64,000 nucleotides of DNA. Origin: Alphaproteobacteria bacterium (GTDB lineage Bacteria; Pseudomonadota; Alphaproteobacteria; UBA6615). The translations under genes and the position numbers were made by a program. Below the pieces are notes generated by a model. The model was given only the letters and a program-made list of their open reading frames with translations, searched no databases and had not been told where the DNA came from. The first letter of the stretch is position 1. The number at the start of each line of letters is the position of its first letter. Where the stretch lies: assembly GCA_965205535.1 (NCBI GenBank), contig CBDBHH010000005.1, forward strand, positions 266,712-330,711, read 5' to 3'. Shown one piece after another: positions 22,759 to 62,435 of this stretch.

Positions 22759-23685
22759 TCAGCCCATCAGGGCGCCCACATGGGCAGCCGCAGATTCGCC
22801 CAAGGCCGTCAGATCGTAACCCCCTTCGAGAGTCGACACGACCCGGCCATCGCACACCGCATCAGCCAGGCGGCGCAGCTCGTCGGTCGCCCAGACAAAA
22901 TCCTCCGTCTCGAGAGATAGTTGCGCCAGCGGATCACGGCGGTGGGCATCGAAACCGGCCGAGATCAATATCAGATCCGGTGCGAAATTCCGCATGGCGG
23001 GCAAGACCACGTCGCGCATCGCGGCGCGGAAATCATCCGACCCCGCGCCCGGCCAGAGTGGTGCATTGGCGATGTTGCCATGCGCCCCGGTTTCATTCTT
23101 GTCGCCCGTGCCCGGATAAAGCGGCCATTGATGGGTCGAGGCGTAGAACAGGCCCGGTTCGTTCCAGAACATGGCCTGGGTGCCGTTGCCGTGATGGACG
23201 TCGAAATCCATCACCGCGACACGTTCAGCGCCATGCGCCGTGCGCGCATGCTCAGCCCCGATGGCCACGCTGTTGAACAGGCAGAATCCCATACCCTGGG
23301 TTGGCTCGGCGTGATGGCCCGGCGGCCGCATGGCGCAGAAGGCATTGTCGGCCGCCCCTGTCATCACTGCATCGACTGCATCCACCATGGCACCTGCAGC
23401 GCGCAACGCCGCCTCACCGGATTTCGGCGACATGAGCGTGTCGGCATCGATCCGGCTATATCCCTGTGCAGGCACCAGTTCGAACACCTTGGCCACATAG
23501 TCTTCCGGGTGCACCAGGGTCAGATGTTCGCGCCTGGCTTCTGGTGGCGTGTGGCGCTCGAGACCATCGAACGCCGGGGCAGCCAGGACCTCGGCAATCG
23601 TGCGCAGCCGGTCTGGAGATTCCGGATGTCCCGGTGCGGGTTCATGTTCGATACAGACCGGGTGGAAATAGAAACGGGTCGTCAT
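22759..23685 (-). CDS. histone deacetylase-family (acetoin utilisation/AcuC-like) protein
   Basis: Start reassigned to MTTRFYFHPVCIEH (ATG 23685); HDAC motifs (PPGHHA, DFDVHHGNGTQ, GGY). Confidence 0.75.
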   Translation of the reverse strand: MTTRFYFHPVCIEHEPAPGHPESPDRLRTIAEVLAAPAFDGLERHTPPEARREHLTLVHPEDYVAKVFELVPAQGYSRIDADTLMSPKSGEAALRAAGAMVDAVDAVMTGAADNAFCAMRPPGHHAEPTQGMGFCLFNSVAIGAEHARTAHGAERVAVMDFDVHHGNGTQAMFWNEPGLFYASTHQWPLYPGTGDKNETGAHGNIANAPLWPGAGSDDFRAAMRDVVLPAMRNFAPDLILISAGFDAHRRDPLAQLSLETEDFVWATDELRRLADAVCDGRVVSTLEGGYDLTALGESAAAHVGALMG

Positions 23686-23902
23686 GCGCCGACTCCGGAT
23701 TGATGGGGTGTGGCGCCATTGTAACCTCCGGAACGCCACCACGACAGAGAGGGAGATTTGCGTCGTGCCTGATGGCGAAATTGTGACAGACAGAGGCGCT
23801 ATATCGGAGTTAGCCAATTGACATATATTGGCGCGCGGCGTGTTCTCCTCGCCAACAGCACAACCGACGTGTACAGCACCGTTTCGTTCCTGGAGATGAT
23901 AC

Positions 23903-25492
23903 GTGATGAACGCTCGAAAAATTCGAACCGCAACCCTGCCCGGCACGGTCATATTCGTTGCTGGCGTGTTGTTCGCCGCACCCGGACTGGCTCAGACACC
24001 CGAGCTTTCGGGACCCGCGCAAGCGCTCGACGGTAACGCCAATGGTGTCATCGAGCGCGCGGAAGCGCTCGGCCCTGCAGCCGCCAACTTCGACACGATC
24101 GATCTCGATAAAAGCGACACCCTCGACGGCGACGAATTGCGCCACTTTTTCGCCGGCGGCCCGCGTCCGGAGCCCAAGGCAGCCGCCAGCAGCCCCGCCG
24201 AGCCGCTCGCCGGCCCCGCTGTGGCCATGGATGCCAACAGCAACGGCATGATCGAAAAGGACGAGGCCCAGGGCCCGGCTGCGTCCAATTTCGATACGAT
24301 TGATCTCGACAAGAGCGGCACCCTCGACGGGTCGGAACTGCGCTACTTCTTCCGGGGTGGCGAACGCCCCGGCGGCCCGGCGAAGGCCGCAAGTGCGGAT
24401 GCGAAGCCATCTGGTGGCGCGCCCGGTGGACCGCCGCCTGCGCGCGTGGTTCTCGACAAGGTTGTCGAAGAGCGTATCGGCCAGACCACCCCCGTCGTAG
24501 GCCGCATCGTGGCGCAACAGTCCGGACCGGTCGCAGCGCGCATCAGCGGTCCCGTGGTGGAGATGCGTGTAGATGTCGGAGACCGTGTCGCGACCGGCGA
24601 TGTGCTCGCGCAGATCGACCGGGAACGCATGCAGCTCGAACGCGATCGTTATGCCGCCATCGTATCGCAGCAGCGTGCCAACCTGACGGCAGAACGCGCG
24701 GACCTCGAGCAGACCCAGAACGAACTGGACCGCCTGGAAGGCATTCGCAAATCGGCCGCCTTCTCGCAAGCCCGGTTCGAAGACGCGGTCCAGGCCGTCG
24801 CATCCCAGACCGGATCGGTCGCCGAAACCCGAGCCCAGCTGGCGCAGGCGCAAGCCCAGTTCAAGCGCGCCGATCGGGATCTGACGGACACCGAGATTCG
24901 CGCGCCCTATCCCGGCGTCGTCAGCGAAACCCATACCGAGATCGGCGCCTATCTGTCGATCGGCAACCCGGTCGCAACCATCATCAACGATAGCAATCTG
25001 GAAATTGAGGCCGACGTTCCGACCGCCCGGATCGCGAATCTGAGCGACGGGGATGCGGTAAGCATCCGGATCAGCGAAGGGTTGGTCATTCCCGCCACCC
25101 TGCGTGCGGTGGTGCCGGTCGAAAACCCCCGGACCCGGACACGGCCTGTGCGTTTCACACCCGATTTCGTCGGCATGGACGCACCACTGGCCGACAATCA
25201 GAGCGTGACGGTGTTGCTCCCGGTCGGCGGGTCGCGTGACGCTGTGACGGTTTCCAAGGACGCGGTCACCCAACGCAATGGCCAGAGCATGGTGTTTGTC
25301 GCGAACAACGGGCGCGCACAGCCACGCCCCGTGACGACCGGCGAGGCAACTGGCAGCCGACTCGTCGTGATTTCGGGCCTGAAGGCCGGTGATCTGGTCG
25401 TGGTGCGCGGCAACGAGCGGTTGCGCCCGGGCCAGCGCCTCCAGGATGTGGGCAGTGGCGAAGGCAAAACAAACGGCAGCGGCGGAGGCTGA
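23903..25492 (+). CDS. RND efflux periplasmic adaptor (membrane fusion protein) with an N-terminal tandem-duplicated EF-hand-like extension
   Basis: C-terminal about 370 aa is a typical HlyD/MFP (biotin-lipoyl-like and beta-barrel segments, ...DVLAQIDRERMQLERD...APYPGVVSE...). Residues about 40-150 contain four 12-residue loops fitting D-x-[DN]-x-[DNS]-G-x-[IL]-x3-E; the gene lies directly upstream of the RND pump. Confidence 0.8.
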   Translation: MMNARKIRTATLPGTVIFVAGVLFAAPGLAQTPELSGPAQALDGNANGVIERAEALGPAAANFDTIDLDKSDTLDGDELRHFFAGGPRPEPKAAASSPAEPLAGPAVAMDANSNGMIEKDEAQGPAASNFDTIDLDKSGTLDGSELRYFFRGGERPGGPAKAASADAKPSGGAPGGPPPARVVLDKVVEERIGQTTPVVGRIVAQQSGPVAARISGPVVEMRVDVGDRVATGDVLAQIDRERMQLERDRYAAIVSQQRANLTAERADLEQTQNELDRLEGIRKSAAFSQARFEDAVQAVASQTGSVAETRAQLAQAQAQFKRADRDLTDTEIRAPYPGVVSETHTEIGAYLSIGNPVATIINDSNLEIEADVPTARIANLSDGDAVSIRISEGLVIPATLRAVVPVENPRTRTRPVRFTPDFVGMDAPLADNQSVTVLLPVGGSRDAVTVSKDAVTQRNGQSMVFVANNGRAQPRPVTTGEATGSRLVVISGLKAGDLVVVRGNERLRPGQRLQDVGSGEGKTNGSGGG

Positions 25493-25497
25493 TCGCG

Positions 25498-28400
25498 ATG
25501 AACCTGATCTCCGCGTCAATTCACCGTCCGATCGCGGTCATCGCGGTCGTCATTATGATCATCATGTTCGGCTGGGTGGCGCTGCAGCGCATCCCCATCC
25601 AGCTGGCACCGGACGTGCGACAGCCGGTGATCATCGTCGACACCTTCTGGCCAGGTGCGTCGCCGCTCGAGGTCGAGCGCGAGATCGTCAACCGCCAGGA
25701 AGAAGTCCTCAAGGGAATCGAGGGCGTGCGCAAGATCGAGAGCCGCGCGCGCACCGGCCGCTCGGATATCACACTTGAATTCGCGCCGAGCCAGAACATG
25801 GACCGTGCGCTTTTGCTGGTGGCAAATCGGCTCGACCGGGTCAGCGGATATCCCGAGGAAACCGACGAACCGACCCTGCGCACGTCGGGCACCGACGACA
25901 ATCCGATCGCCTGGTTCGTTTTGCGCCGACAGGCCGAGAACGACCGGGATCTGCTCACATACGGCGATTTCCTCGAGGACGTGGTCCAGGAGAGGATCGA
26001 GCGCATCCCGGGAATCTCCGGCGTCAACATATTCGGTGAGACCGAACGCGAGATGCGGATCATCATCGATCCCGAACAACTCGCCCAGTTCCGCCTGACC
26101 ATCGGCGACGTCGTCGAGCGGCTGCGCGCCGAGAACGCGTCGATCTCCGGCGGTGACGTCGAGGAAGGCAAGCGCGCCTACGTGGTGCGTACCGAAGGCG
26201 ATTTCACCACGCCCGATCAGGTCCTCGATGTTGTTCTGCGCTCGGATGCCGGCCGCGCGGACGGTCAGATCGGCCGCATCACGCTGCGCGACATCGCCCA
26301 GGTCGAACTCGGCTACAAGGAAGCGCGCGCGCTGCCCCACAGGTTCGATGAGCGCGCCATGGCGTTCAACATGACCCGCGAGCAGGGCGCCAACGTCCTG
26401 GCGGTGATGGACCAGGTGCATCGTGTTGTCGGAGACCTCGCGGAAGGGCCACTCAACCGGGTTGGCCTGATCGTCGAGAACGTGTTCGACGAGACCCTGT
26501 ATGTGAATTCGGCCATCTCTTTGGTGCAGCAGAATATCATCGTCGGCGGCATCCTCGCCGCCCTCATCCTGATGCTGTTCCTGCGATCATGGCGCCCGAC
26601 CCTCGTCGTTTCCCTGGCGATCCCGGTCTCGGTGATCGGTTCCTTCGTGGCCATGGCAGCACTCGGTCGTTCTCTCAATGTCATCAGCCTGGCGGGGATC
26701 GCCTTCGCGGTCGGTATGGTTGTCGACGCCGCCATCGTCGTGCTCGAGAATATCTTTCGGCTTCGCCAGGAGGGTCATTCTCGTGCGGAAGCCGCACGAA
26801 TGGGCGCATCGCAAGTCTGGCCGGCCGTGCTCGTATCGTCCCTGACCACCGTGATGGTGTTCATCCCGATCCTGGTCATGGAGCTTGAAGCCGGGCAGTT
26901 GTTCCGGGATATCGCTGTCGCGATCTCGGTCTCCGTCCTCCTGTCGTTGCTGGTCTCCGTGACGGTAATCCCGGCCCTCGCCAACCGTCTGCTGGTGAAC
27001 AGCGTGGCGGAAGGCAAAAAGACAAAACGCATACCCGTCGTCGATGACTTCGCCCACGCTTTCGTGAACTTCTGGCAGGATTTCACCCGAATGGTCGTGC
27101 GATCGAAATTGCGTGCGCTCGTCGTTGTCGGCGCCATCACGCTCGCATCGGGCGCGTTTACCCTGGCCTTCGCCCCCAAACTCGATTACCTGCCGACCGG
27201 TAACCGCAACTTCGTGTTCGGTTTCGTGAACGTACCGCCGGGATACAATCTCGACACCGTCACCGAGATCACCGAGCGGATCGCGAACCGAACCCGCAAC
27301 TTGTGGGCGTCGGAGACCGGACCGGAGTCCGAGGCCGGTGAACCGCCCAAGTTCCAGCGCTTCATCCGCGTGCCGTTCGCCGGCCGCGCCTTTATTGGCG
27401 GCACGTCGGTCGATCCGAGCCGTGCCGCCGAGTTGATCCCGGTCCTGCAGAACGCAGGGCGACAGGACCCCGGCGTTCTCACCTTCCCGAGCCAGCCATC
27501 GCTGTTCGGCCGTTCACTGGGCAGCGGCCGCACCATCGACGTCGATATCCGCGGATCGGACCTCGAACAGATCTACCAGGTCGCCTTCGATGTCTTTATC
27601 CGTCTCGCACCACGCTTCCCCTTCAGCGAAGGAAACCAGGTCCGGCCCATCCCGAGCCTGACCTTGTCGGCACCCGAAGTCCGGGTCGAGCCCAACCGCC
27701 TGCAACTCGCAGACAACGGCTTGTCGGCCCGCGCGCTCGGCCAGGCCGTCGACGCTTTCAACGACGGCCTGCGGGTCGCCGAAATAACAGTCGATGGCAA
27801 ACGGATCGACCTGACGCTAACCGGACCACCGAACATCATCGATCAAACCCAGGGGATCGGCTCTCTGCCGGTCGTGACCCGCGATGGGCGCATCGTGCCG
27901 GTCGAGGGGCTTGCAGATGTGAAAATCACCTCCGGCCCGACCGAGGTCAGGCGCGCCGACCGCGCCCGCACCGTGCGGCTACAGGTTCGTCCGAACGCAG
28001 ATACACCGTTGCAGAGCGCGTTCGAGCTGATTCAGGACGAAATCGTCAAACCCGTCGAAGAAGCGGGCCTGCCCGAGGGTGTCAGCATCCGGCTGACCGG
28101 GACCGCCGACAAGCTGCTGGAAACCTGGAACGAGCTGGTCATCGATCTGATTCTGGCGATCGTGATCGTCTATCTGGTGATGGCCGTTCTGTTCGAGAGC
28201 TTCATCTACCCGCTGATCATCATGCTCACCGTCCCCGTCGCCGCGGCGGGCGGCATTGCCGGGTTGGCGCTTTTGAACATCTGGGTCCTGCAGCCGCTCG
28301 ATATGCTGACCATGCTCGGATTTGTCATCCTGACCGGCATCGTCGTGAACAACGCGATTCTTCTGGTCCACCAGACCCTCTATCACATCCGCGAAGATGG

Positions 28401-28680
28401 CATGAGTGCGGATGATGCGATCATGCTGGCGACCCAGAACCGTGTCCGGCCGATCTTCATGTCGACCCTTACATCGGTGTTCGGCATGCTGCCGCTTGTC
28501 GTATTCCCCGGCGCAGGTTCGGAGCTCTATCGCGGCCTGGGGTCCGTCGTGCTGGGTGGCCTGTCATTGTCGGCCGTCCTTACCCTGGCGATCGTGCCGC
28601 CGATGATGTCGATTACCGTTGGCTGGCGCGAACGCCATCGAAACGATCAGGCGGACGCGAGCCCGACACCCGCATCATAG
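25498..28680 (+). CDS. RND multidrug efflux transporter permease (AcrB/HAE1 family)
   Basis: 1060 aa with 12 TM helices and two large periplasmic loops; the N-terminus MNLISASIHRPIAVIAVV... is typical of AcrB-like pumps. Confidence 0.9.
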   Translation: MNLISASIHRPIAVIAVVIMIIMFGWVALQRIPIQLAPDVRQPVIIVDTFWPGASPLEVEREIVNRQEEVLKGIEGVRKIESRARTGRSDITLEFAPSQNMDRALLLVANRLDRVSGYPEETDEPTLRTSGTDDNPIAWFVLRRQAENDRDLLTYGDFLEDVVQERIERIPGISGVNIFGETEREMRIIIDPEQLAQFRLTIGDVVERLRAENASISGGDVEEGKRAYVVRTEGDFTTPDQVLDVVLRSDAGRADGQIGRITLRDIAQVELGYKEARALPHRFDERAMAFNMTREQGANVLAVMDQVHRVVGDLAEGPLNRVGLIVENVFDETLYVNSAISLVQQNIIVGGILAALILMLFLRSWRPTLVVSLAIPVSVIGSFVAMAALGRSLNVISLAGIAFAVGMVVDAAIVVLENIFRLRQEGHSRAEAARMGASQVWPAVLVSSLTTVMVFIPILVMELEAGQLFRDIAVAISVSVLLSLLVSVTVIPALANRLLVNSVAEGKKTKRIPVVDDFAHAFVNFWQDFTRMVVRSKLRALVVVGAITLASGAFTLAFAPKLDYLPTGNRNFVFGFVNVPPGYNLDTVTEITERIANRTRNLWASETGPESEAGEPPKFQRFIRVPFAGRAFIGGTSVDPSRAAELIPVLQNAGRQDPGVLTFPSQPSLFGRSLGSGRTIDVDIRGSDLEQIYQVAFDVFIRLAPRFPFSEGNQVRPIPSLTLSAPEVRVEPNRLQLADNGLSARALGQAVDAFNDGLRVAEITVDGKRIDLTLTGPPNIIDQTQGIGSLPVVTRDGRIVPVEGLADVKITSGPTEVRRADRARTVRLQVRPNADTPLQSAFELIQDEIVKPVEEAGLPEGVSIRLTGTADKLLETWNELVIDLILAIVIVYLVMAVLFESFIYPLIIMLTVPVAAAGGIAGLALLNIWVLQPLDMLTMLGFVILTGIVVNNAILLVHQTLYHIREDGMSADDAIMLATQNRVRPIFMSTLTSVFGMLPLVVFPGAGSELYRGLGSVVLGGLSLSAVLTLAIVPPMMSITVGWRERHRNDQADASPTPAS

Positions 28681-28725: not shown

Positions 28726-29424
28726 ATGACCGGATCCGGAAACAGCCTCGCAGACATCCCGTTCCTCGAACCGCTGAACGAGTCTTCGCGCACCGCACTT
28801 GAACAACGTGCGCGCTGGGTCCGCTATACGTCCAACGACACGATCATCGACCGCGAGAGCGAATCCCGGGACGTGTTTTTCGTCGTGGAAGGCCGGGTAA
28901 GGGTCGTGAATTTTTCGATTTCAGGACGTGAGATCAGCTTCGACGAAATGGAGCCCGGCGGCGTGTTCGGCGAGCTCGCCGCGCTTGATGGCATGCCCCG
29001 CTCGGCCGCCGTCGTCGCCCTGACCGACACCCTTGTCGCGTCAATTTCACCGGACACGTTCCTGAATTTGCTGCGCGATCATCCCGACCTGGCCATTGGT
29101 GTGATGCAGGAACTGGCCAAGATCGTGCGTACGTCGACAGAGCGCATCATGGGTCTGTCCACGCTTGGCGCTCTCAACCGGGTGCACTCGGAAATCCTGC
29201 GGGAAGCGCGCGCCCATGCCGAGGACGGCGCCAACACGGCGCGCATATCACCGATCCCGGTCCACGCCGATATCGCTGCACGGGTCAGTACGACGCGTGA
29301 AACGGTCGCACGGGTCTTGAGCGATCTCACCAAGCAGGGCCTGGTCAAACGGGAAAAAGACGCCCTTGCCATTCTCGACCTCGAGCGGCTCGAGGACCTT
29401 GTTGAGGAAGTGCGGGACTTCTAA
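28726..29424 (+). CDS. Crp/Fnr-family transcriptional regulator (cNMP-binding domain plus C-terminal HTH; no FNR cysteine cluster)
   Basis: cNMP-binding segment FFVVEGRVRV...GGVFGELAALDGMPRSA and HTH RETVARVLSDLTKQGLV; sits 45 bp after the RND gene. Confidence 0.8.
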   Translation: MTGSGNSLADIPFLEPLNESSRTALEQRARWVRYTSNDTIIDRESESRDVFFVVEGRVRVVNFSISGREISFDEMEPGGVFGELAALDGMPRSAAVVALTDTLVASISPDTFLNLLRDHPDLAIGVMQELAKIVRTSTERIMGLSTLGALNRVHSEILREARAHAEDGANTARISPIPVHADIAARVSTTRETVARVLSDLTKQGLVKREKDALAILDLERLEDLVEEVRDF

Positions 29425-29464
29425 GTCTCTGTTCCAACTAAAGTTCTTATTTTTCTGGCCACCC

Positions 29465-29480
29465 TGTGATGCCCGTCACT
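29465..29480. promoter_or_regulatory. CRP-like box TGTGA-tgcccg-TCACT
   Basis: Seen directly 40 bp after the Crp gene stop, overlapping the start of small ORF 29466..29648; same consensus as the tandem boxes at 33826-33856. Confidence 0.4.
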
Positions 29481-29698
29481 GGGGAATACACAGGGGCGCA
29501 TTACATTGGTGTCATCGGCGACGGATCATCGCCGCACACCAACGGTACGGAGCTGAACATGTCACGACAAACCCGCATCAACGTCGCCGCTTTCTTTCTG
29601 GCAGCCCCGATGGTGATCGTCGGGGTTTCGATGACACCAGGCTTTTAGTTTCCACAGGTGTGATCTTTTCGCACTGATCCAACCTCCTCCTGGACTTG

Positions 29699-29737
29699 CG
29701 GCCGGCTCTCTTGAGACCGGCCGCCTTTCTTTTCCAA
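29699..29737 (+). terminator. putative intrinsic terminator (gcggccgg-ctctcttgaga-ccggccgc followed by a T-rich run)
   Basis: 8-bp perfect GC stem followed by ctttcttttcc on the plus strand. Confidence 0.5.
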
Positions 29738-29767
29738 CCTTGTTCCGTGATCAGCAGATGTTGGTAT

Positions 29768-31226
29768 TCAGAACGTCCAGCGTCGGTTGAGCCCGATCGA
29801 AAGCCTGTAGTTGTTGTAGGTGTAGTTACGACACCTGCCGATACGCTTCGCCGCCGAATGTGAATGTAAACGGTGTCCAGAACTCCCCGGCATTGGTGAA
29901 AATGCCCGACCAGGGGATGCCATAAGTCATCCGGACACGTCCGCCCCAGTCATGGCGGGTTTGGGCGCTGATCGATGGATCCCGGTCGTCGTAGCGATCA
30001 TTGTTGACGGTCAATGATGTCAGCAAAAAATCGCCGCCGCCGAACAACAGCGTGTGGCTTAAGCCGATCTCCATTCCATCGTAAGAATTGTAGCTGCGAG
30101 ACGCGATATTGCGGGTCTGGGTATATGTGACACGCAGGCGCTGACGTGGGGTCAGAATCTGCGAGGTTCCAACTTCGATCTCATACTCACGCCCGCTACG
30201 TTCCGTGGCCGTCAGGCTGCTCGTGATGTTGTTGTAGGACTGATATTTCATTGTCCCGCCGGCAAAAACCGACCAGGTGTTGGAAAGCGCATAGACCCAA
30301 TCAACAGTGGCACCCGCTGCCGTGAGATACTTCTCGCGCGACAAGTCGATGCGCTCATAGAGAAGACGCGGCGTTATTGTCGACGGTGCAAAATCAAGCT
30401 CGTACCCGAAATCGGCGGTGATGGCACGCAGGTCCAGGTCATCCTGCTGGATCTGTTCTCCCTGGTAGAAAACCAGCCCACCAAGCATCTTGTGCTGTTT
30501 CTGCAGTCCGAGGTCATGCTCAAAGGAAATCTGAGCCAAACCATTCAAGGCCATATCATCCTGGCGCGCGGAACTGCCGGTCGTTCGTGTCGGCAAATCA
30601 GCGGCGAGGCGGAGCTCGGACTTCGGTGACGCGTTGCGGTTCCAGTCATACTGGGTGGCGAAATTCATCGCGAAAGTGAAGATCGTCCGCTTGCGACGTG
30701 ACGCAATTTGGTCGAGATACTGGTCGATCTGGCGCCGCAGCTCAGGTGCCAGGTCCAGTTCCTGCAAGGAAACCAGTTCACGCTCGGCCTCATCGAGGTT
30801 GTCGAGACGGAAAAGGACGATTGCGAATAAAACCCGCACCACGGCCAGGTCGGGACGGATCAGGAGAATACGTTCCAGCGTCGCGCCCGCGCCACGCACA
30901 TTGCCATCACGAATTTGGGTCAGCGCATATCGAACGTTGAGTTCAATATTGTCGGGGTCTTCAAGCACCTGTTCGAATGTTACGGGCGGCCCCTTGCTGA
31001 AGGCCTCCAGGTCAAGTGCGTCCTGGGCTGTTCGCTCAACATCACGCTGAGTCTCGATCGATTCACGTACATCGGTTTCACGGGATTCCGTGTCCGACTG
31101 CTGGGCATGCGCAGGCACCGCGATTACGATCGCTCCGGCGATCACCAACCCATAGCGAAAACCGCACCGCACACGCCCATGCGCGCGCAATAGAGAACTC
31201 GGCACTCGAACCAACGAAACCCCCAA
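29768..31226 (-). pseudogene. outer-membrane protein with N-terminal TPR-like region and C-terminal beta-barrel (DUF560/Slam-like architecture); apparent frameshift near 29826-29832
   Basis: 466 aa ORF 31226..29826 has a signal peptide (AIVIAVPAHA) and a TPR-like helical region, then a strand-like sequence. The last beta-strand with terminal aromatic residue (...NYTYNNYRLSIGLNRRWTF*) is in the +1 frame immediately after the annotated stop. Confidence 0.5.
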
Positions 31227-31297
31227 AGTATCGGGGTATTAAGCATGATGTGCCAAATGGGGGCAAGCGTGAGGCACCGCTCTAACCCTTTGAGAAA

Positions 31298-33559
31298 TCA
31301 TTTCATTTCCTCAACGTGGATGCCTTTCCAGTCCTCCGGCGGCGGATCGAAGGAATAGTGGAAAATGCGCTCGGCGTAGAGCTCGTAGAACGCCTCGATG
31401 GCACCAGGCATTTCGACACAGAGGTTGAGTGCATCCTGGGCGCTGTCCCAGTCGCGAGCGCGATAAGCCTCCAGCATCCGCGCATGCTCACGCCGCAGGG
31501 CCTGGAAATCCTCGCTCACCGCCATAGGCGCATCACCCAACAATGCGTAAATACGAACCGCCTCTCGCTTGCCTTTCACGGCAATCCTGTCGAGCTCAAG
31601 GAAAGCGAAGTCGTCAGCCACCTGACTTTGCGTCGATTCACCCACAATGATGGGCACCCCATATGGCCGCGACTGGCCTTCGAGCCGGGCGGCGAGATTG
31701 ACCGCGTCACCCAACACCGAATAGTCAAACCGCTGGTCCGATCCCATGTTCCCGACGACACACTCGCCTGTGTTGAGACCAACCCCGACGGCTATGGCGA
31801 CTGCGTCCGGGTTCTCCGCCAGGCGCGAATCATTGACCTGCTCGAGCGCGCGCAGCATGGCCAGTGCGGCGTCACAGGCATGGGCAGCATGGGCCGGATC
31901 ATCGATCGGGGCGTTCCAGAACGCCATGATGCAATCGCCCATATACTTGTCGATGGTTCCGTCACGCTCCAGAATTTCAGCGGTCAGCGGCGTCAACAGG
32001 CGATTGATCAAGGTGGTCAGCGCCTGCGGATCATCGCGATGTTCTTCGGAAATGGATGTGAACCCGCGAATGTCGCAAAACAGCAGGGTCATCTCCCGCG
32101 TCTCGCCACCCAGCCTGAGCCGCTCGGGCTGGTCGGCAAGCTGTTCAACCAGTGCCGGCGACAGATATTGCCCGAAGGCCGTACGAATCTGGCGACGCTG
32201 GGTTTCCGATTGCAGATACGTGATCAGCGAGCTCGATAAATAGACCACCAGCACGACCAGCGCCGGGAAGACCGGGTCGATCAGAACGCCCACGCTCGTG
32301 AATGCAAACCACCCTGCTGCCACACCCGCTGTAATGGCGATCAGGCACACGATGGCGCTCGCGGTAACACCAAGTCGCGGCAGCAAAAGCACCAGAAAAA
32401 TTCCCAGCAGCGCGAACGCCGCGAGTTCCGCCCCCAATGTCCAGTCCGGGCGCGTCAGAAAACTTCCATTGAGAATCTGCTCCACGAGTTCGGCATGCAC
32501 TTCGACCCCGGGAATGATCGAGTTCAGCGGGGTCGCGCGAAGATCGAACAACCCCGGCGCGCTTGTCCCGACAAGTATGATCGCTCCCTCGATACCGTCA
32601 TCGGCCTTGATGGGTTCGGTGTCAGACCAGAGGCGCCATGCCGGTACATATCGTGCAGCTTCATGGCCGGTATAGCGCAACCACACATGGCCATCGCCGC
32701 TTGTCGGCACCCGCAAATTTCCGATCCGGATATCGGCGATACCCGAACTGTCGTCGACACCACCCTCACCGCTCGCGTCTGACATACGGATATTAAATCC
32801 CTGCGCGCCCTGTGCCACACGAAGCGCCTCGGCCCCGAGCGTCGGGTATAGGGGTGGCAGCTTGAACGGATCGTCATAGGCAGGCGTCGTTCCCGGCGCC
32901 ACATACTGTGTGAACAGTGGCACCCTGCGTATTAGCCCGTCCGCGTCGGCCTCGAAATTTATGTTGCCAACGCCCGAAGCTGCGGCCCCAAGCGCCGGCA
33001 AATTCGCGATCGCAGCGCCGTAGGCCGGCAAAAATGGATGCGGCGGGGATCCGCCGAGCCCGACACCGGCCTTCGGTGCGGGCGGCGGGGCGGTCTCGCG
33101 TGAGCGCGTAAACGCGAACCCGGCGACCACCCGCCCGCGCGCGAAGGCTTCTGCCAGGAGTTGGTCATGGTCGGGCAGTGCGGAGATCCGGGCGCGCAGG
33201 TCTGCATCATCCGGCCCGTCGGGCCAATCCGCGATGACGTTGGACGGCGATGTCCGGTCCGGCTCGGCAAACAACACATCGAATACGACCACCGCAGCCC
33301 CCTGCTCGTGCAGCCTGTCCACCAGCTCGGCGATCCGGGAGCGCGGCCAGGGCCATTGCCCGATTCGTGCCAGGCTTTCATCGTCGATATCCAGGATACG
33401 TACCGGCAGGCCGCTGTCATAAACCCGTGGCTCAATCCGCTGGTAGGTGTCGAAGGTCCACAATCTGGCCAGCTCAACAGGCTGCGGGTCCTCGACGCGC
33501 AGCAACAGCGCGAAGACGAGGATCAGGAGAGGAATGATACGGGCTTTCCAAGTGGTCAT
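31298..33559 (-). CDS. class III adenylate/guanylate cyclase with N-terminal CHASE2 extracytoplasmic sensor domain
   Basis: 753 aa with an N-terminal TM segment, a large periplasmic region and three further TM segments. C-terminal cyclase homology domain (LLFCDIRGFTSISE ... YMGDCIMAFWNAP ... GDAVNLAARLEG). Confidence 0.85.
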   Translation of the reverse strand: MTTWKARIIPLLILVFALLLRVEDPQPVELARLWTFDTYQRIEPRVYDSGLPVRILDIDDESLARIGQWPWPRSRIAELVDRLHEQGAAVVVFDVLFAEPDRTSPSNVIADWPDGPDDADLRARISALPDHDQLLAEAFARGRVVAGFAFTRSRETAPPPAPKAGVGLGGSPPHPFLPAYGAAIANLPALGAAASGVGNINFEADADGLIRRVPLFTQYVAPGTTPAYDDPFKLPPLYPTLGAEALRVAQGAQGFNIRMSDASGEGGVDDSSGIADIRIGNLRVPTSGDGHVWLRYTGHEAARYVPAWRLWSDTEPIKADDGIEGAIILVGTSAPGLFDLRATPLNSIIPGVEVHAELVEQILNGSFLTRPDWTLGAELAAFALLGIFLVLLLPRLGVTASAIVCLIAITAGVAAGWFAFTSVGVLIDPVFPALVVLVVYLSSSLITYLQSETQRRQIRTAFGQYLSPALVEQLADQPERLRLGGETREMTLLFCDIRGFTSISEEHRDDPQALTTLINRLLTPLTAEILERDGTIDKYMGDCIMAFWNAPIDDPAHAAHACDAALAMLRALEQVNDSRLAENPDAVAIAVGVGLNTGECVVGNMGSDQRFDYSVLGDAVNLAARLEGQSRPYGVPIIVGESTQSQVADDFAFLELDRIAVKGKREAVRIYALLGDAPMAVSEDFQALRREHARMLEAYRARDWDSAQDALNLCVEMPGAIEAFYELYAERIFHYSFDPPPEDWKGIHVEEMK

Positions 33560-33825
33560 CCCTGCAATCTAGCCCAGTGCGCGATTCCGGAGAACGCCGG
33601 CGCGCTTGCATCTAAAGCGCGACGGACGCGAAGGAGATCACCCCGAGCGCGAGAAAGGATGCCGCGCCCCACCGCAGATACATGCGCAAGACAGTGCGGC
33701 TTGCATAGTTTCCGAAAATTCCGTTGCTCGCCAGATGGCGCATATGCGCGGGTCGCCGGGTCATGAGGTCGGTCCGGTTGCTGTTGAAATCCACGCACAA
33801 AGTGCCGTGCGATCGGCTTCGTGTC

Positions 33826-33856
33826 TGTGACGCCCGTCACTGTGACCCCCGTCACT
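33826..33856. promoter_or_regulatory. two tandem CRP-like boxes (TGTGA-cgcccg-TCACT / TGTGA-cccccg-TCACT) sharing one T
   Basis: Seen directly in the 528-bp divergent intergenic region between the CHASE2 cyclase (minus) and the FecR-domain gene (plus); each is a perfect GTGAC...GTCAC palindrome. Confidence 0.45.
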
Positions 33857-34086
33857 TCCCAGGCCGGCAATCATCGCTAGGTTTGGCTCACAACAACGAA
33901 TGGGAAACATGATGATGATCGCGCAACACAACTCACTGAAGCTGATCGGGCACGGCACCCTGATTGTGACCGGCATGCTGACAGGCGGTGTTGGCGCCGC
34001 CGTAATTGTCCTCTTTGCCGCCGCCACGGGAATTTAGGTGCGAGAACGCCTTTTCGACGCTATCTGAACAACTTAGGATATCCGCC

Positions 34087-35721
34087 ATGTTCAATCGCTC
34101 TGCCACTCTCTTCACCGTCGTCACGATCGCCATGACATCTGCCCCGGTTGCACATGGCCAGGGGACCGCCGCACGCGCCGGCGTGGCCGCCGCCGTGCGG
34201 GGCGATGTGGTTTTGATTGCCGCCGCACCACGCCAGGACATCCGGGCGGTCGGCGAGAACGTGCAGAGCGGCGATCCTGTTTTTCTCGGAGATACCATCG
34301 AGACAGGTCCGGATTCAGGCCTCCAGATCATGCTGATGGACGAAACAATTTTCACGATCGGCCCGGACGCGGCCTTGATCATCGACGAGTTTGTCTATGA
34401 TCCCGAAACCAGCGCCGGGAAAGTCACCGCATCGGTTCTGAAGGGCGCCTTCCGTTTTGTCTCCGGTCGCGTCGCCAAGGAAGAGCCGCGCAACATGAAC
34501 GTGAAGACCCCCGTTGGGACGATCGGCATTCGCGGCACATCGACCGCGGGACGCGTCATTCCGGCGAACCCGAACGACCCCAACAGCGAAATCTCGGCCG
34601 ATATCGTGCTGCTCGGGCCGGGCGCCGATAACAATGCAAATGAGCGCGCCGGTCGAATCATCGTCTCCAATGCAGACACGTCGGTTGAAATTTCACGTTC
34701 GGGCTTCGGCACGAACATCGCCGGGATCGATGCAGCACCGACCATTCCCGTGCGGTTTGAGCCATCTGTTGTGTCCGGTCTGACTGGTGACCTCGGTACG
34801 GATGGCGGTGCACGTCCGGCATCCCGACCCGCGGCCGGCCCCGACGCGCAGAACGGCAATGATCAATCAGGCGGCAGCGACGGCAATCCACCCAACAGCG
34901 ACACAGGCGCAAACAACGGCGACGGTTCGACGGCGGCCCGCCCCGCAGGACCTGCAGCACCCGCGGGACAAAACTCCAACGATGCAGGCGTGTCCGGGCC
35001 TGCCGGCGGCGCGGCAAGCAGCCCCGTCATCCCCCGCGGCCCGGCTCCCGGAAGCGCCGTAGCCGCGGGTCCGGTAGCGGGAGGCGGCATCAACCTCGGA
35101 CAGGTGAACGCATTGTCGGGTCAGACGATTGGCGCCAGCGTCGTCAATGCCGGGGTCCTGAACCAGCTTGGCGCCAATCAGAATCAGGCCCAGCAGTTGC
35201 TGCTGGCTGCGGTCGAAGAGGGTGCCGGGTCGTTCAATAATGCGGTCACGACATTCTCACAGCTGCAGTCCATAGAGACGGGTAAAGCGAGCTATGATTT
35301 CGGCACGATCAATCTCAGCTATGTCAGCGGGGCGCACCAAAACAGCGGTGGCAGCTACAACGCATCTGCCTTGATCGATTTCGGTGCGCGCACGATTGAC
35401 CTCACGGTGGCGAATGTCAGCTACTTCTTCAACGGCGGTACAGGGCGGCTGTTCGTGTTCAAGGACGACGGTGGCAGCGGCCCAACCGACGGAACATTTG
35501 ACGGTGACAACGGCCCGGTAAAGAACACCTGGGACTCATCCGTCGACACGACCAACTTCCCGACGGCGCCCACAGACGGGGCCACCGCAAAGGTGACCGC
35601 AACGATCCTGAACAACACCGAGACGGGCGTGATCGCCGGCGCCGGACGGATCAATGTGCGGATCGAGGAAAATGGCGGCAACACCGTGAGCGCCGGCGGA
35701 AAAACGGTCGCGAGGCAATAA
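34087..35721 (+). CDS. secreted FecR-domain protein with Gly/Pro/Ala-rich low-complexity linker and a C-terminal domain of unknown function
   Basis: The start was chosen at MFNRSATLFTVVTIAMTSAPVAHG (signal peptide, AGGA ribosome-binding site). FecR-like region DVVLIAAAPRQDIRAVGENVQSGDPVFLGDTIETGPDSGLQIMLMDETIFTIGPDAALIIDEF. FecR-domain genes commonly neighbour CHASE2 sensor genes. Confidence 0.65.
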   Translation: MFNRSATLFTVVTIAMTSAPVAHGQGTAARAGVAAAVRGDVVLIAAAPRQDIRAVGENVQSGDPVFLGDTIETGPDSGLQIMLMDETIFTIGPDAALIIDEFVYDPETSAGKVTASVLKGAFRFVSGRVAKEEPRNMNVKTPVGTIGIRGTSTAGRVIPANPNDPNSEISADIVLLGPGADNNANERAGRIIVSNADTSVEISRSGFGTNIAGIDAAPTIPVRFEPSVVSGLTGDLGTDGGARPASRPAAGPDAQNGNDQSGGSDGNPPNSDTGANNGDGSTAARPAGPAAPAGQNSNDAGVSGPAGGAASSPVIPRGPAPGSAVAAGPVAGGGINLGQVNALSGQTIGASVVNAGVLNQLGANQNQAQQLLLAAVEEGAGSFNNAVTTFSQLQSIETGKASYDFGTINLSYVSGAHQNSGGSYNASALIDFGARTIDLTVANVSYFFNGGTGRLFVFKDDGGSGPTDGTFDGDNGPVKNTWDSSVDTTNFPTAPTDGATAKVTATILNNTETGVIAGAGRINVRIEENGGNTVSAGGKTVARQ

Positions 35722-51943: not shown

Positions 51944-52351
51944 TCAGGCGCCGCTGGCCGAACAAGCCAATTCAAGCCGCGTCTCTTCGGCCAGCAGAAG
52001 CGCCCACGTGTCGGCCGGCATGAAACGCGGTGCCAGATACTTGTAAAGGTCGCGCAAAAGGGGCGTCACGGCATAGGGGTCAGAAATATTGCCCGGCAGG
52101 CGGTCCCATGATTCCGCGATCTCGTCCCAGGGGTTCAGGCGGGCGAACATCTCATCGCGAATATCGCGGATTGCGCTGCGGTGGAATTCAAAATTTTCGA
52201 ACAGGGAAACGATATTCGAAAGGCGCGCATCGATCTCGGCCAGGCTAAGTCCCAACGCGTGAACGGGGACTGAAATAAGCCGGGCGACCGGATCTACATC
52301 GCTGAGAATGCTCGCATGGTGGGCAAAGTCGCGGCGCACTATTTTTCGCAA
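51944..52351 (-). CDS. hypothetical protein (possible gene remnant) abutting the island's left direct repeat
   Basis: 135 aa ORF whose first codons overlap repeat copy 1; no motif recognised. Confidence 0.3.
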   Translation of the reverse strand: MRKIVRRDFAHHASILSDVDPVARLISVPVHALGLSLAEIDARLSNIVSLFENFEFHRSAIRDIRDEMFARLNPWDEIAESWDRLPGNISDPYAVTPLLRDLYKYLAPRFMPADTWALLLAEETRLELACSASGA

Positions 52352-52912
52352 TCAGTAGTTAGGGGCTTCAGTCCAGTGCCATGGGCAGGACCGGCTGTTC
52401 CGGCCGCCCCGCCACCGCGCCGGGAACCGTGAACCGCCTGCCGCCGAATATATCGGCGACGGTCAGCATCTGCTGCATTCGGGTTCCCCAACTTCACACC
52501 CCGCGCCTTGGCGGCCTGCAAGGCTGCCTTCGTGCGGATGGAAATGGATTCCCGCTCATGCTCGGCCACAGCGGCCAGAATGTGCATGGTCAGGCGATTT
52601 GCCTCCGGCATATCGACGGCCACAAAGTCCGCACCGCTCTCCATCAGATTTGAAATGAAGGCGACACTCCGTGCCAACCTGTCCAGTCTGGCAATGAGCA
52701 AGGGTGCCTTCTTCTGGCGGCAAAGGGTTAGGGCTTCAGCTTAGGGCAGGGCGGTCATTCTTCCTGCCGCTCTCGATCTCCGTGAATTCAACCAGCAATT
52801 CACCACGACCGGCAATGAAGCGGGTCACTGCTTCGCGCTGCGCTTCCAGGCCAAGGCCGGAACGGCCTTGCCTATCAGTCGATACCCGGAAATAGCCCAC
52901 AAAATCAGTCAT
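52339..52912 (-). pseudogene. serine recombinase (resolvase/invertase family) with a +1 frameshift near 52731-52733; its 3' end lies inside the direct repeat
   Basis: N-terminal fragment MTDFVGYFRVSTDRQGRSGLGLEAQREAV... (catalytic Ser context) ends at NDRPALS*. Removing one A from cctaagct restores ...NDRPALAEALTLCRQKKAPLLIARLDRLARSVAFISNLMESGADFVAVDM...KARGVKLGNPN. Confidence 0.6.
52347..52473. repeat. 127-bp direct repeat, copy 1 (left boundary of the island)
   Basis: Identical to 62675..62801 except for 2 mismatches (G/A at 52370 and C/T at 52427 in copy-1 coordinates). Confidence 0.8.
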
Positions 52913-53010
52913 GTGAGACAGTCTAGCGGCCTTCCGTATAAAAATCAAACGTGGGTTTGATTTTTATACAACTTAAACCAATGCCCTTTAAAAGGGCGCA
53001 AACAGCCCCA

Positions 53011-55323
53011 CTATCCCTTCTTTGTGAAAGCGATAGTTCTGGTGCAATGATTGACGAGTTCCTGATCGTTGATGATCTCTATAGCATATGCGGGGTTTGT
53101 TTCATGGTGAAACTTGTTGGCATAGTCGAGCAGTTTACGGAGCTCGTCAGCATCCGCCTGATTCAAAATCGGTGTTCCTGCTGTCAATGCCTGCACACAT
53201 TCACTGTGGAATGGCCCCAACATTTTACCCGGCGGAAAATGGGCGGGGTAGGCAACACGCAAAAAGGCTTCCAGAACATAGCGCAGGGCAGTAGCAACCT
53301 CTCGCGCTTTGCTTTGATCAGACTGGTTAAGATACTGCTGAATCAGGGCATGTCGCTTATCATGCTCCGTGATGCAATCCTGCGTTACGTCCCAAGTATC
53401 AATAGTTGATGATTGACCGCTTCGGATGATGTGCAGCGCAGCGCGGGCTGTCTTATCAGCGCCTTCCCAAACCTGACAAAGGAACGGTTTTGAGTGTGAA
53501 AGAAGGATAACCTGCTGAACACGCTGTGCCAGCCCCCGAACCTCTTGAATCGTTGCGAGTGATCTATGCTCATCCAGACTGGTCATCGGATCATCAATGA
53601 CAATGACCTTTTGTGCTAGCCCTGCATCCTGATCAAGAGACGCAAGAAAGAAAGCAAGAGCCAGGGTGTTTCTATCTCCGGCGCTCATCGTATTCCTGAA
53701 TGAAGGGCCATTATTACTGGCAAGCGGCACAGAAACATTGTTGATCAACACATTGTATGTGCATGATGATCCGCCTCTGTTATTTTGAGCGGAAACGCTA
53801 TCCAGCCGGAAACCTGCATTGAACTTACCCAGGTAATCGTTGATCGCCTGCTGATATGTGGCGAAGATACTGGCGCAATATTGTTCAAGGTCAGTCTTTG
53901 CCTTGTCACGCTTCTCCTCTGTTTTCTTCTTTTCCCCTTTCTCTGCCAGATAAGCATCGCAATGCTTTGCCACATCTGATTCAAATCGTGCCTTGATCGT
54001 TTTCAATCTGTTCAAGTCATCCGTTAGCGTTGCCACATTAGCTGTGGCCGCTTTTTCTTTCACGGCCTGGATCGGATCATTGCATTCGATCAGGCTTGAA
54101 GAGAGCCCTGTAATGGCCTCACGATGCCCGTCATAGGATTTTACAGCCTCAAGAATATCTTCGGAAAGAGTCATCTTCTCAAGAGGTGAGGCCAGCTTTG
54201 CTCTCAAGATTTCAAGGATAGGCTCACGCGCTGCTTTCCAGGCGCGGGCAATCTCTGCTGTATCGACCTGAATAGCAAGAATATCCGTGAATTTCCGCCA
54301 GAATTCACCGTTCTGAATTGCTTCACTGACAGCACGTTCAAAGGCAGATTGGATTTCTCCCTTGTGAGCATCAGCAATCGACTTTCCAATGTCAGTGATA
54401 GCCTGCTTCAGGGAAGTGTAAACATCACTGAAATAGGTCTCATAGTGAGCAATAATATCTGAATCTTTCAGCTCTTGGTCACAGAACGGGCATCGCTGTT
54501 CATCATCAGAAGAGTCGGCGATCTTCTGCATCCCCTCACCAATCCAGGACTCCGCACCTTTACCCAATTTTTCAAGATGCTGCTTCACTCTGGTTGTTGC
54601 TTCGACCTGCAATCCAGGCAAGTCACGTTGAAGGATTGCTTCAATCGCAGCGGTATCGAATTCAGGCAGTGATAGGGGCTTGAACTCGCCTTGCTTATTG
54701 ATTGGATCAGCGTCTTTCGCAGCGGCCAGATTTCGTTCAGCCTGCTGAATCTCATCATCTATATCTATTTTGGGATTCTTCTGCAACGCGCAGAAGTCCT
54801 CAACATTAATTGTGCCTCGCGCCTTGACAGGAATAGCCGCTTCCTTGGTTTTCAGGGTGCGATTATGCTCTTCGATTTTGCTGATATGCCCTTTCAGGGA
54901 TTCATTCAGCGCAATCCCCTGCGCCCCTAGAATAAGCTCATGCAGCTTCTGTTTATGGCCAGAATCAACTACAACTCCCGAACAAACATTCTCGACCACA
55001 AAGTGATCGTCGAAAATAGCGATTTCCGGGAGATGGGTCTGCCATGCACCATTTTGAAAAATGAACGATTGCTGGCCATTTGCCTGCACAACGATATGTG
55101 GATCGGCATTTGCATGAGGGGCGGTGCCGGATTGCAAGCGTTTCCGTTCTTCGATCAATGTTGGATTATTGGTGCTCAAAGAGCGTAGCAAATTGGCAAG
55201 GGTTGTCTTCCCTCGTCCATTCTCGGCATATATCAGCGTCATGCCGGAAAATCTCGTTTGCTGCCCTGGGGAGACGCTATCGAATTGCCCAACATTTCTG
55301 ATCAGTTGAATCTGCTCAATCAT
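53011..55323 (-). CDS. AAA_13-family ABC-type ATPase with coiled-coil/CxxC insertion and a C-terminal about 130-aa domain (RloC/PrrC-like putative anticodon nuclease)
   Basis: Walker A YAENGRGKTTL, central CPFCDQ in a predicted coiled coil (zinc-hook-like), ABC signature MSAGDRNTLALAF, Walker B VIVIDDPMTSLD, H-loop LLSHS. Confidence 0.65.
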   Translation of the reverse strand: MIEQIQLIRNVGQFDSVSPGQQTRFSGMTLIYAENGRGKTTLANLLRSLSTNNPTLIEERKRLQSGTAPHANADPHIVVQANGQQSFIFQNGAWQTHLPEIAIFDDHFVVENVCSGVVVDSGHKQKLHELILGAQGIALNESLKGHISKIEEHNRTLKTKEAAIPVKARGTINVEDFCALQKNPKIDIDDEIQQAERNLAAAKDADPINKQGEFKPLSLPEFDTAAIEAILQRDLPGLQVEATTRVKQHLEKLGKGAESWIGEGMQKIADSSDDEQRCPFCDQELKDSDIIAHYETYFSDVYTSLKQAITDIGKSIADAHKGEIQSAFERAVSEAIQNGEFWRKFTDILAIQVDTAEIARAWKAAREPILEILRAKLASPLEKMTLSEDILEAVKSYDGHREAITGLSSSLIECNDPIQAVKEKAATANVATLTDDLNRLKTIKARFESDVAKHCDAYLAEKGEKKKTEEKRDKAKTDLEQYCASIFATYQQAINDYLGKFNAGFRLDSVSAQNNRGGSSCTYNVLINNVSVPLASNNGPSFRNTMSAGDRNTLALAFFLASLDQDAGLAQKVIVIDDPMTSLDEHRSLATIQEVRGLAQRVQQVILLSHSKPFLCQVWEGADKTARAALHIIRSGQSSTIDTWDVTQDCITEHDKRHALIQQYLNQSDQSKAREVATALRYVLEAFLRVAYPAHFPPGKMLGPFHSECVQALTAGTPILNQADADELRKLLDYANKFHHETNPAYAIEIINDQELVNHCTRTIAFTKKG

Positions 55324-58575: not shown

Positions 58576-58578
58576 GGT

Positions 58579-61350: not shown

Positions 61351-62432
61351 GTGCGCCCCTCGTCATTCGTCTCGCGTGTTCCCATTGGCAGGCCATACCA
61401 GATGGCTCGGCCTGCGCCATGCCGGACAAGCATTCCCTTGTCCATCAGGCTGCGGAATGTGGCTTTCAGGGTGTTCGGGCTGGCTCCGTGCTCCCGCACC
61501 ATGTCGCGGTTTGTAACGCGGCCATGCTGGCGGGCATAGTCCAGGATCATGACGGCCAGCTCTGGCAATTCAGCAAGGGCGCGTTCCTCGCGCTCTATCT
61601 TGTCGGCCAGGCGGCGCTTCTGGTGCTGCAAGGATCGCATGAAAAACAGCAGCCAGGGCTGCCAGTCCGGGGCATCGCTGCGGATGGTTGCCTGTGTCTG
61701 GCGCAAGGCCAGATAGTAGCCTTCCTTGCTGTGCTCGATCACGCTCTCAAGGGATGAATAGGGGACATAGGCATAGCCTGCCTGCAACAGCAGCAGGGTT
61801 GTGAGGACACGGCTCAAGCGTCCGTTTCCATCCTGAAAGGGATGGATTTCAAGGAATACCACGGTGAAGACAGCGACGATCAGCAGGGGGTGCAGGCGCT
61901 TCAGCTCTCGCGCCTCATTCAGCCATTGCAGCAGCTCCGTCATGCGCTGCGGCGTATCGAAGGGGGTGGCGGTTTCAAAGACGATCCCGACCATTTTGCC
62001 GGATGCGTCGAAGGCTCCCACGTCATTGCGCCCGGTCTTGTATTCGCCCCGGTGGCGTTCGTCTTTGGCGCCGTAACGCAGCAAGTCGCGGTGAAGCTGT
62101 TTGATGTGGTTTTCCGTGATGGGAATGTCCTGCCATGCCTGAAACACGGTCTCCATGACCTCGGCATAGCCTGCAACTTCCTGCTCGTCACGGCTATCGA
62201 ATTTCTTGATGTCCAGCTTGCCCAGCAGCTCTTCCACCTCACGATCAGACAGCTTGCTGCCCTCGATGCGGGTGGATGATCCGATGCTCTCGATCATCGC
62301 CACACGGCGAAGGGCTTGCAGCCGTTCCGGCGCAAGCGTTCCAAGAGCCCGCCATGCGCCCTTAAACTCGTCTATTTCGGAGAGAAGGGACAGTAATCCG
62401 GGTGTGATCTGAATCGTTTCGGTCTGAATCAT
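61347..62432 (-). CDS. Fic-family protein (AMPylation-type catalytic motif) with C-terminal winged-helix region
   Basis: Canonical HPFQDGNGRLSR motif; 361 aa; overlaps the MmeI-like gene start by 4 nt. Confidence 0.85.
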   Translation of the reverse strand: MIQTETIQITPGLLSLLSEIDEFKGAWRALGTLAPERLQALRRVAMIESIGSSTRIEGSKLSDREVEELLGKLDIKKFDSRDEQEVAGYAEVMETVFQAWQDIPITENHIKQLHRDLLRYGAKDERHRGEYKTGRNDVGAFDASGKMVGIVFETATPFDTPQRMTELLQWLNEARELKRLHPLLIVAVFTVVFLEIHPFQDGNGRLSRVLTTLLLLQAGYAYVPYSSLESVIEHSKEGYYLALRQTQATIRSDAPDWQPWLLFFMRSLQHQKRRLADKIEREERALAELPELAVMILDYARQHGRVTNRDMVREHGASPNTLKATFRSLMDKGMLVRHGAGRAIWYGLPMGTRETNDEGRT

Positions 62433-62435
62433 ACC

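Follow-up and report, generated by a model that had tools for sequence, protein, structure and literature searches.

An RND efflux adaptor of marine Alphaproteobacteria with predicted EF-hand pair units between its signal peptide and its core

We analyzed a 64,000-nucleotide stretch of an alphaproteobacterial genome (the window, meaning the whole stretch of DNA at its full length) with a focus on the gene for the periplasmic adaptor, or membrane fusion protein (MFP), of a two-gene efflux pump of the resistance-nodulation-division (RND) family, the N-terminal part of which carries four EF-hand-like loops. The open reading frame (ORF) of the adaptor lies on the + strand and extends from 23903 (GTG) or 23906 (ATG) to 25492, corresponding to 529 or 528 amino acids; a 100% identical database protein (P0001) starts at the ATG, and residue numbers throughout are counted from the ATG at 23906. 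The adaptor scored 194.1 bits against the family profile TIGR01730 (RND_mfp; cut-off 94.9) and was also matched by HlyD_3 and HlyD_D23, and an RND permease gene begins 5 nt past its stop codon. The assignment as an RND membrane fusion protein, proposed by an earlier model-made reading of the DNA alone (the sequence-only reading), is thereby confirmed. The features of the two pump genes are as follows.

23906-25492, + strand: gene for the EF-hand-bearing RND periplasmic adaptor (ORF list, TIGR01730, HlyD_3, HlyD_D23, P0001)
23906-23995, + strand: Sec-type signal peptide, residues 1-30, MNARKIRTATLPGTVIFVAGVLFAAPGLAQ (read from the sequence)
24005-24154, + strand: EF-hand pair unit 1, residues 34-83 (EF pattern, AlphaFold 2 model, lanmodulin alignment)
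24029-24064, + strand: loop 1, DGNANGVIERAE, residues 42-53 (EF pattern)
24101-24136, + strand: loop 2, DLDKSDTLDGDE, residues 66-77 (EF pattern)
24155-24205, + strand: linker 1, residues 84-100, Pro/Ala/Gly-rich and predicted to be disordered (model confidence, pLDDT, below 50 at residues 91-96)
24206-24355, + strand: EF-hand pair unit 2, residues 101-150 (EF pattern, Pfam, AlphaFold 2 model)
24230-24265, + strand: loop 3, DANSNGMIEKDE, residues 109-120 (EF pattern)
24302-24337, + strand: loop 4, DLDKSGTLDGSE, residues 133-144 (EF pattern)
24356-24439, + strand: linker 2, residues 151-178, Gly/Pro/Ala-rich and predicted to be disordered (pLDDT below 50 at residues 158-174)
24440-25450, + strand: adaptor core with membrane-proximal, beta-barrel and lipoyl domains (full-length AlphaFold 2 model, pLDDT 85-98)
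24620-24886, + strand: alpha-hairpin of the core, residues 239-327 (AlphaFold 2 helices 239-279 and 288-327)
25498-28680, + strand: RND permease of 1060 amino acids, the operon partner (ACR_tran, 674 bits)

Since the signal peptide contains no Cys, the adaptor is not a lipoprotein, and we infer that the signal peptide is cleaved; its '...A-x-A-Q' ending recurs in orthologues whether or not they have EF units. The signal peptide is separated from the adaptor core by an insertion of 148 amino acids (residues 31-178), which is longer than the extension of about 110 residues first proposed. The insertion holds two units, each built in the order helix, 12-residue loop, 12-residue connector with an invariant Gly-Pro...Asn-Phe, 12-residue loop and helix. 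The units are 72% identical in amino acid sequence, and a duplicated pair is therefore upheld, although the conserved unit measures about 50 residues with a period of 67 and is not a near-identical block of about 60. All four loops carry the EF ligands (Asp at position 1, Asp or Asn at 3, Asn or Ser at 5, a hydrophobic residue at 8, an acidic residue at 9 and Glu at 12), with Asn at positions 3 and 5 in loops 1 and 3, and Ser at position 5 in loops 2 and 4. The sequence-only reading was right in counting four 12-residue EF loops but fitted all of them to D-x-[DN]-x-[DNS]-G-x-[IL]-x-x-x-E, from which loop 2 departs by having Asp instead of Gly at position 6. A relaxed pattern, D.[DN].[DNS][GD].[ILV]...E, matched four times in the 127,996 codons of the six frames of the window, and the four matches are loops 1-4. 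At the DNA level the units are 66.7% identical in register over 150 nt and 40% identical at third codon positions, with different codons at 21 of the 36 identical residues and a best local match of about 80% over 82 nt; Tandem Repeats Finder and a repeat finder reported no unit-length DNA repeat at the EF units. The duplication, which had been described as visible in the DNA, is barely so, and a recent DNA duplication was ruled out by the empty repeat searches and the low third-position identity. Taken together, the DNA, third-position and amino acid identities indicate an old duplication whose copies have been kept similar by selection on the protein.

Several lines of evidence identified the units as EF-hands. 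With the whole protein as query, three Pfam models scored above their gathering cut-offs, namely EF-hand_6 (32.1 bits, cut-off 25), EF-hand_1 (31.3, cut-off 25.4) and EF-hand_7 (30.9, cut-off 30), and unit 2 scanned alone reached the cut-offs of EF-hand_1, EF-hand_5 and EF-hand_6 with 29.2-29.4 bits. In scans of single loops, loops 2 and 4 scored 19-23 bits and carried most of the score of their units. AlphaFold 2 modelled unit 1 (pLDDT 85-90) as two helix-loop-helix elements with a short beta bridge between the loops, and unit 2 at pLDDT 85-88, the range over both units as helix-loop-helix pairs being 85-92. A module profile (A1) was built from 33 homologous N-terminal regions and compared with the PDB; the lanmodulin structures 8fns and 6mi5 ranked first (E about 2e-9), followed by calbindin and other EF proteins, and each unit could be aligned with an EF pair of lanmodulin (EF1-EF2 or EF3-EF4) over 40 residues without a gap. 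That the region is a degenerate, acidic low-complexity linker which imitates the EF pattern and binds no metal is extremely improbable given the ligand pattern, the profile scores above cut-off and the paired helix-loop-helix geometry found here, even though loops 1 and 3 are weak in single-loop Pfam scans and the Foldseek E-values are poor (7.7e-3 or worse). The profile and structure-prediction checks proposed in the sequence-only reading thus both came out in its favor. Together, these data indicate that, by sequence and predicted fold, the four loops are two EF-hand pair domains, and each unit most likely binds two Ca2+ ions.

We then considered which kind of EF-hand protein the module resembles. 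In every homologue 12 residues lie between the two loops of a unit (24 from start to start), which is the spacing of lanmodulin and not of calmodulin (PMC11576760), whereas the gap between the units, from loop 2 to loop 3, is a disordered stretch of 31 residues. A calmodulin-like four-EF-hand protein, which the sequence-only reading had envisaged, was rejected in favor of two independent EF pairs because the connectors have 12 and not about 24 residues, the linker between the units is disordered and orthologues with one or three units occur. Lanmodulin (LanM of Methylorubrum extorquens; PDB 6mi5, 8fns) is similar in its periplasmic EF-hands, in the roughly 12 residues between loops and in the acidic position 9. 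It is, however, one compact protein of about 12 kDa, whereas in the adaptor module two separate beads are joined by a disordered linker and form part of an efflux adaptor. The lanmodulin loop motif is D1-P2-D3-x-D5-x3-D9-x2-E12 (PMC11576760), and no loop of the window protein or of 120 homologues has Pro at position 2; loops 1 and 3, with Asn at positions 3 and 5, also hold fewer carboxylates than lanmodulin. In addition, the NCBIfam lanmodulin model NF053806 gave 52 bits against a cut-off of 135 (E 7e-14), the module is fused in one to three units to an adaptor core of 350 amino acids instead of forming a stand-alone four-EF-hand protein of 100-160 amino acids, and the lut/xoxF context of lanmodulin is absent from the window. 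The module was for these reasons not classed as a lanmodulin. Dockerin type I was likewise rejected, as Dockerin_1 had no match at E<=1 on the window protein and matched only in some poly-EF relatives of the module. When a library of 50%-identity cluster representatives was searched with the module profile, 5,938 representatives matched at E<=1e-3 and 676 at the stricter E<=1e-10. The relatives of the module are for the most part stand-alone poly-EF proteins (arrays of Pfam EF-hand_5/EF-hand_7), which belong to the same EF module family but are without the efflux fusion; the membrane-anchored EfhP of P. aeruginosa is one such protein. Among the bacterial poly-EF proteins matching the module, loops recur most often with a period of 24 residues, so that spacing alone is uninformative on lanthanides.

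The adaptor core is that of an RND adaptor by its family profile, its four domains and the adjacent RND permease. The solved adaptors closest to it are TriAB (6vej, E 1e-34) and MexJ (2e-23), with ZneB, MacA and AcrA also matched in the PDB. TriAB and MexJ of Pseudomonas aeruginosa (PDB 6vej, 20yy) have the same four-domain layout, and the PDB match spans the adaptor core only. The modelled hairpin of two helices of about 40 residues points to a tripartite pump. A scan of the large ORFs in the window and in the contexts of three other homologues with N-terminal fusions yielded no gene for an outer-membrane factor, and the outer-membrane channel would have to be encoded at another place in the genome. 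The permease shares about 25% identity with AcrB and as much with CusA, and it scores higher with HAE1-type than with CusA/CzcA models. An HME-type (CusA/CzcA) pump was rejected on the basis of a TIGR00914 score of 329 bits against a cut-off of 701 and a Met triad (M573, M623, M672) that is not conserved. Transmembrane helix (TM) 4, GMVVDAAIVVLEN, contains a single Asp (VDAAIV) as does CusA with D405, and not the D407/D408 pair of AcrB, while TM10 (GIVVNNAILLV) has Asn where AcrB has K940 and CusA E939. Among 80 related loci, each motif is unchanged in all those where it was readable (73 and 65 loci, respectively), whether the adaptor bears EF units or not.

These permease features, together with the lanmodulin likeness, bear on the notion that the EF pairs are tethered capture domains, whose ligand would be a hard cation (Ca2+, Cd2+/Pb2+ or a rare-earth ion) that is a substrate or activator of the pump and is passed on to the permease, in the manner of the Met-rich N-terminal tail of CusB or of a fused CusF-like domain in Cu/Ag pumps. 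The flexible tether, the variable copy number and the membrane-proximal position of the units would suit such a role, as would the rank of lanmodulins as the nearest solved relatives of the unit, the E-value of the LanM model, and the single TM4 Asp and atypical TM10 of the permease; a lanthanum-induced RND pump reported in Methylobacillus flagellatus is a distant precedent (PMC9988556). Against this, the LanM score is far below its cut-off, Pro2 is missing, Asn occupies positions 3 and 5 of loops 1 and 3, the 24-residue period is not specific to LanM, the permease leans toward HAE1 and is without the Met triad of CusA, and there would be no point in exporting Ca2+ from a periplasm that sea water can enter. 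We consider metal capture of this kind very unlikely, and it is similarly doubtful that the EF beads feed or gate the atypical permease (single Asp in TM4, Asn in TM10) as hard-metal capture domains. Were it true, the pump would represent a new class of RND metal efflux in which a fused EF-hand metallochaperone plays for hard cations the part of CusF/CusB.

We also examined how widely the fusion occurs. The results showed that all 120 best homologues, down to 45% identity, have two, four or six loops, i.e., one to three units, which answers the orthologue check proposed beforehand with the same fusion in every case. Source labels of the homologues give RND adaptor subunit and nothing more, and the databases list the domain matches without comment. 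The related loci (one genome per species; 80 taken of at least 554) come mostly from marine metagenome-assembled Alphaproteobacteria, among them Rhodospirillaceae, other Rhodospirillales, Hyphomicrobiaceae, Kiloniellaceae, Magnetovibrio and Thalassospiraceae. Over 33-64 homologues, with identities as low as 45%, the loop ligand columns and the G-P/N-F connector are invariant, while the linkers drift in length and composition and the spacing between loops 2 and 3 varies from 30 to 47 amino acids. The EF-hand fusion on an RND adaptor is thus conserved and widespread in marine Alphaproteobacteria. A full-text literature search combining EF-hand with membrane fusion protein, HlyD, periplasmic adaptor and RND found no description of it, and the architecture, which had been called non-standard, is indeed so for characterized adaptors and the literature searched, but in sequence space it is a conserved family. 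A set of distant homologues (P0088-P0120, e.g., P0098 and P0116, one labelled Paracoccaceae) has Cys at position 2 of the second loop of each unit (DCNKSG) and a second Cys after the exit helix (FFTGEECPK), which suggests a periplasmic disulfide stapling each unit; the window protein is without such a Cys pair.

With regard to the history of the units, the neighborhood dxs-ispA-xseB-histone deacetylase family gene, followed by the MFP-RND pair, is common to EF-bearing and EF-less loci, and in EF-less orthologues the signal peptide directly joins the adaptor core. In a neighbor-joining tree of the adaptor core, which is rough and midpoint-rooted, EF-bearing adaptors form two adjacent clades and EF-less adaptors a third, a pattern that fits one gain, or one loss, of the EF units. 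One locus (L011, JAYPUG010000104.1) is the only seemingly EF-less member of an EF-bearing clade; it has a run of N exactly at the position of the EF units, and its EF count is therefore an assembly artefact. Units are more similar within a protein (mean 0.81, up to 0.98) than are units of the same position across proteins (0.66), and close relatives with a single unit retain either unit 1 or unit 2. It follows that copy number turns over by duplication, loss or gene conversion, with at least one unit always kept.

Fusions of the module to other proteins were also found. Adaptors account for 18 of 174 retrieved module relatives; in 17 of the 18 the fusion is N-terminal, and core identity falls as low as about 35%. 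P0182 (L081, 8001-9854), an unrelated RND adaptor in an OEP-MFP-ACR_tran operon, bears three units of this kind at its C-terminal end. Two such EF-pair units precede a metallo-beta-lactamase (MBL)-fold domain in P0172, and P0252 has an arylsulfotransferase domain preceded by EF-hand arrays that the module profile matches. The EF module thus appears, judging from these sequences, to be a mobile periplasmic building block. Matches of the module on short contigs that seemed to stand alone were mostly truncated or frameshifted adaptor genes, and a tblastn search against plasmids gave no match.

The MFP-RND pair is the sole gene pairing kept in all 80 related loci and in all contexts examined. Upstream, a divergent ORF of the histone deacetylase family (22759-23952, - strand) is listed with 397 amino acids; its Pfam domain begins at residue 109 and its orthologues have about 308 amino acids. 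The gene probably begins some 90 codons further downstream than listed, which would leave an intergenic region of about 200 nt upstream of the adaptor gene. No candidate site came out of a scan for sigma-70 promoters upstream of the adaptor, and Rfam had no match in the window. The gene that follows the permease is a regulator.

28726-29424, + strand: Crp-family regulator binding cyclic nucleotide monophosphates, 45 nt 3' of the permease gene (cNMP_binding, HTH_Crp_2)

No terminator-like site was found on the + strand, and this regulator may be co-transcribed with the pump. Among the 80 loci the regulator follows the permease only in closer relatives (L001, L002, L009-L013 and L023). Further downstream lie a TPR and Slam-like outer-membrane protein (29826-31226, - strand), a CHASE2 adenylate/guanylate cyclase (31298-33559, - strand) and, beyond it, a FecR-domain protein (34006-35721, + strand). 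The region 28726-35721, including the Crp-family regulator, may be a cyclic-nucleotide signalling cluster; it is held together in the closest relatives only (L001, L002 and L023). Elsewhere in the window, positions 52000-62500 have a GC content of 0.50-0.57, as compared to 0.62-0.65 in the rest, and contain a run of minus-strand genes.

53011-55323, - strand: AAA_13 ATPase
55320-56525, - strand: T5orf172/MUG113 protein
56518-58575, - strand: DEAD-box helicase
58579-60495, - strand: ORF with the methyltransferase, target recognition (TRD) and C-terminal domains of an MmeI-like type IIL restriction-modification protein
60559-61350, - strand: ORF with the N-terminal and helicase-spacer domains of an MmeI-like type IIL restriction-modification protein
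61347-62432, - strand: Fic protein

The MmeI-like gene is split into two ORFs (58579-60495 and 60559-61350), and the low-GC region looks like an acquired defence island.

Turning to the role of the EF units, the reading that we favor is of a Sec-exported, non-lipidated periplasmic adaptor of a two-gene RND pump that bears two tethered EF-pair domains. In established adaptor structures both termini belong to the membrane-proximal domain, and the N terminus of this adaptor would accordingly lie at the membrane-proximal end. A ring of six adaptors would place about 12 EF domains, with about 24 sites, around the base of the pump, where the units could act by avidity to bring the adaptor to the pump or the envelope, or to keep it there, and so make assembly dependent on periplasmic divalent cations. 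In calcium-rich sea water the units would be loaded all the time, with no fast switch of the calmodulin type. The variable copy number, the free linkers and the reuse of the units on unrelated periplasmic enzymes favor such an avidity or capacity module over a fixed allosteric switch, and the C terminus of P0182 is also a membrane-proximal end, which we count in its support. On this basis, the units may be calcium-stabilized tethered binding modules that assist in recruiting or retaining the adaptor in this way; this is a tentative reading, which we rate at slightly below an even chance.

The sequence-only reading had instead put forward a calcium sensor switch, in which binding or release of Ca2+ alters the adaptor conformation and toggles pump assembly or efflux with periplasmic Ca2+. 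EF pairs are classical sensors, and the loops are canonical and strongly conserved. The module also sits, by the AlphaFold 2 model and established adaptor architecture, at the end of the adaptor that contacts the permease. One to three copies on disordered linkers of variable length nevertheless argue against a fixed allosteric geometry, and none of the contexts examined has a Ca-related gene linked to the pump. Sea water contains about 10 mM Ca2+, and since the related genomes are marine metagenome-assembled genomes, this Ca2+ would saturate ordinary EF sites. We therefore regard a sensor switch as unlikely.

Several observations weigh against the tethered binding module that we favor. In the single-loop Pfam scans loop 1 gave no match and loop 3 only 13.5 bits. 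EF-less orthologues in the same neighborhood, with the same type of signal peptide, show that the pump does not need the module. No permease feature linked to the EF units, such as a docking site, was evident in a comparison of permeases from EF-bearing and EF-less loci, which yielded three discriminating columns and no indels or insertion and is confounded by the single gain event. Lastly, the C-terminal fusion of P0182 is a single protein, the nearest relatives of which have Gly/Pro-rich tails only. The EF-less orthologues and the permease without co-adaptation would equally suit a generic periplasmic add-on, i.e., a calcium-stabilized spacer, an aid to solubility or folding, or a local cation buffer with no pump-specific role, as would the occurrence of the same units on an MBL-fold enzyme and the prevalence of stand-alone poly-EF proteins among the module relatives. 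However, no member of the two EF-bearing clades is without at least one unit with invariant ligands, over a divergence that reaches about 35-45% identity in the adaptor core, and a second, independent fusion to another RND adaptor is provided by P0182. A generic add-on consequently seems improbable to us.

RND adaptors are usually described as four-domain connectors. To our knowledge, TriAB and MexJ carry no EF-hand module, and we know of dedicated metal-binding appendages for Cu/Ag pumps only. The N terminus of CusB acts in metal transfer and activation, and SilB has a CusF-like C-terminal domain. The N-terminal tail of CusB is, as the EF units would be, a metal-binding extension that is flexibly tethered to the membrane-proximal end of its RND adaptor, but it is Met-rich in its sequence and offers soft Met ligands for Cu(I)/Ag(I) next to an HME-type CusA with a Met triad, whereas the EF-bearing adaptor offers hard oxygen donors in folded EF domains. 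For AcrA, Mg2+-dependent dynamics have been described in which a periplasmic divalent cation tunes an RND adaptor (bioRxiv 10.1101/2024.06.10.597921). We count this as a precedent for cation-dependent adaptor behavior in favor of tethered, cation-loaded binding units, with the difference that in AcrA the cation acts on the core domains, without a dedicated metal-binding domain.

The unit itself, a compact EF pair with lanmodulin spacing but without the lanmodulin prolines, would be a useful comparison for selectivity between Ca2+ and rare-earth ions. The understanding of efflux stays unchanged unless a functional effect of the units is demonstrated. The EF-bearing adaptors would provide a natural system in which to ask if periplasmic divalent cations control the assembly of tripartite pumps, a question for which Mg2+ and AcrA have so far been the only case.

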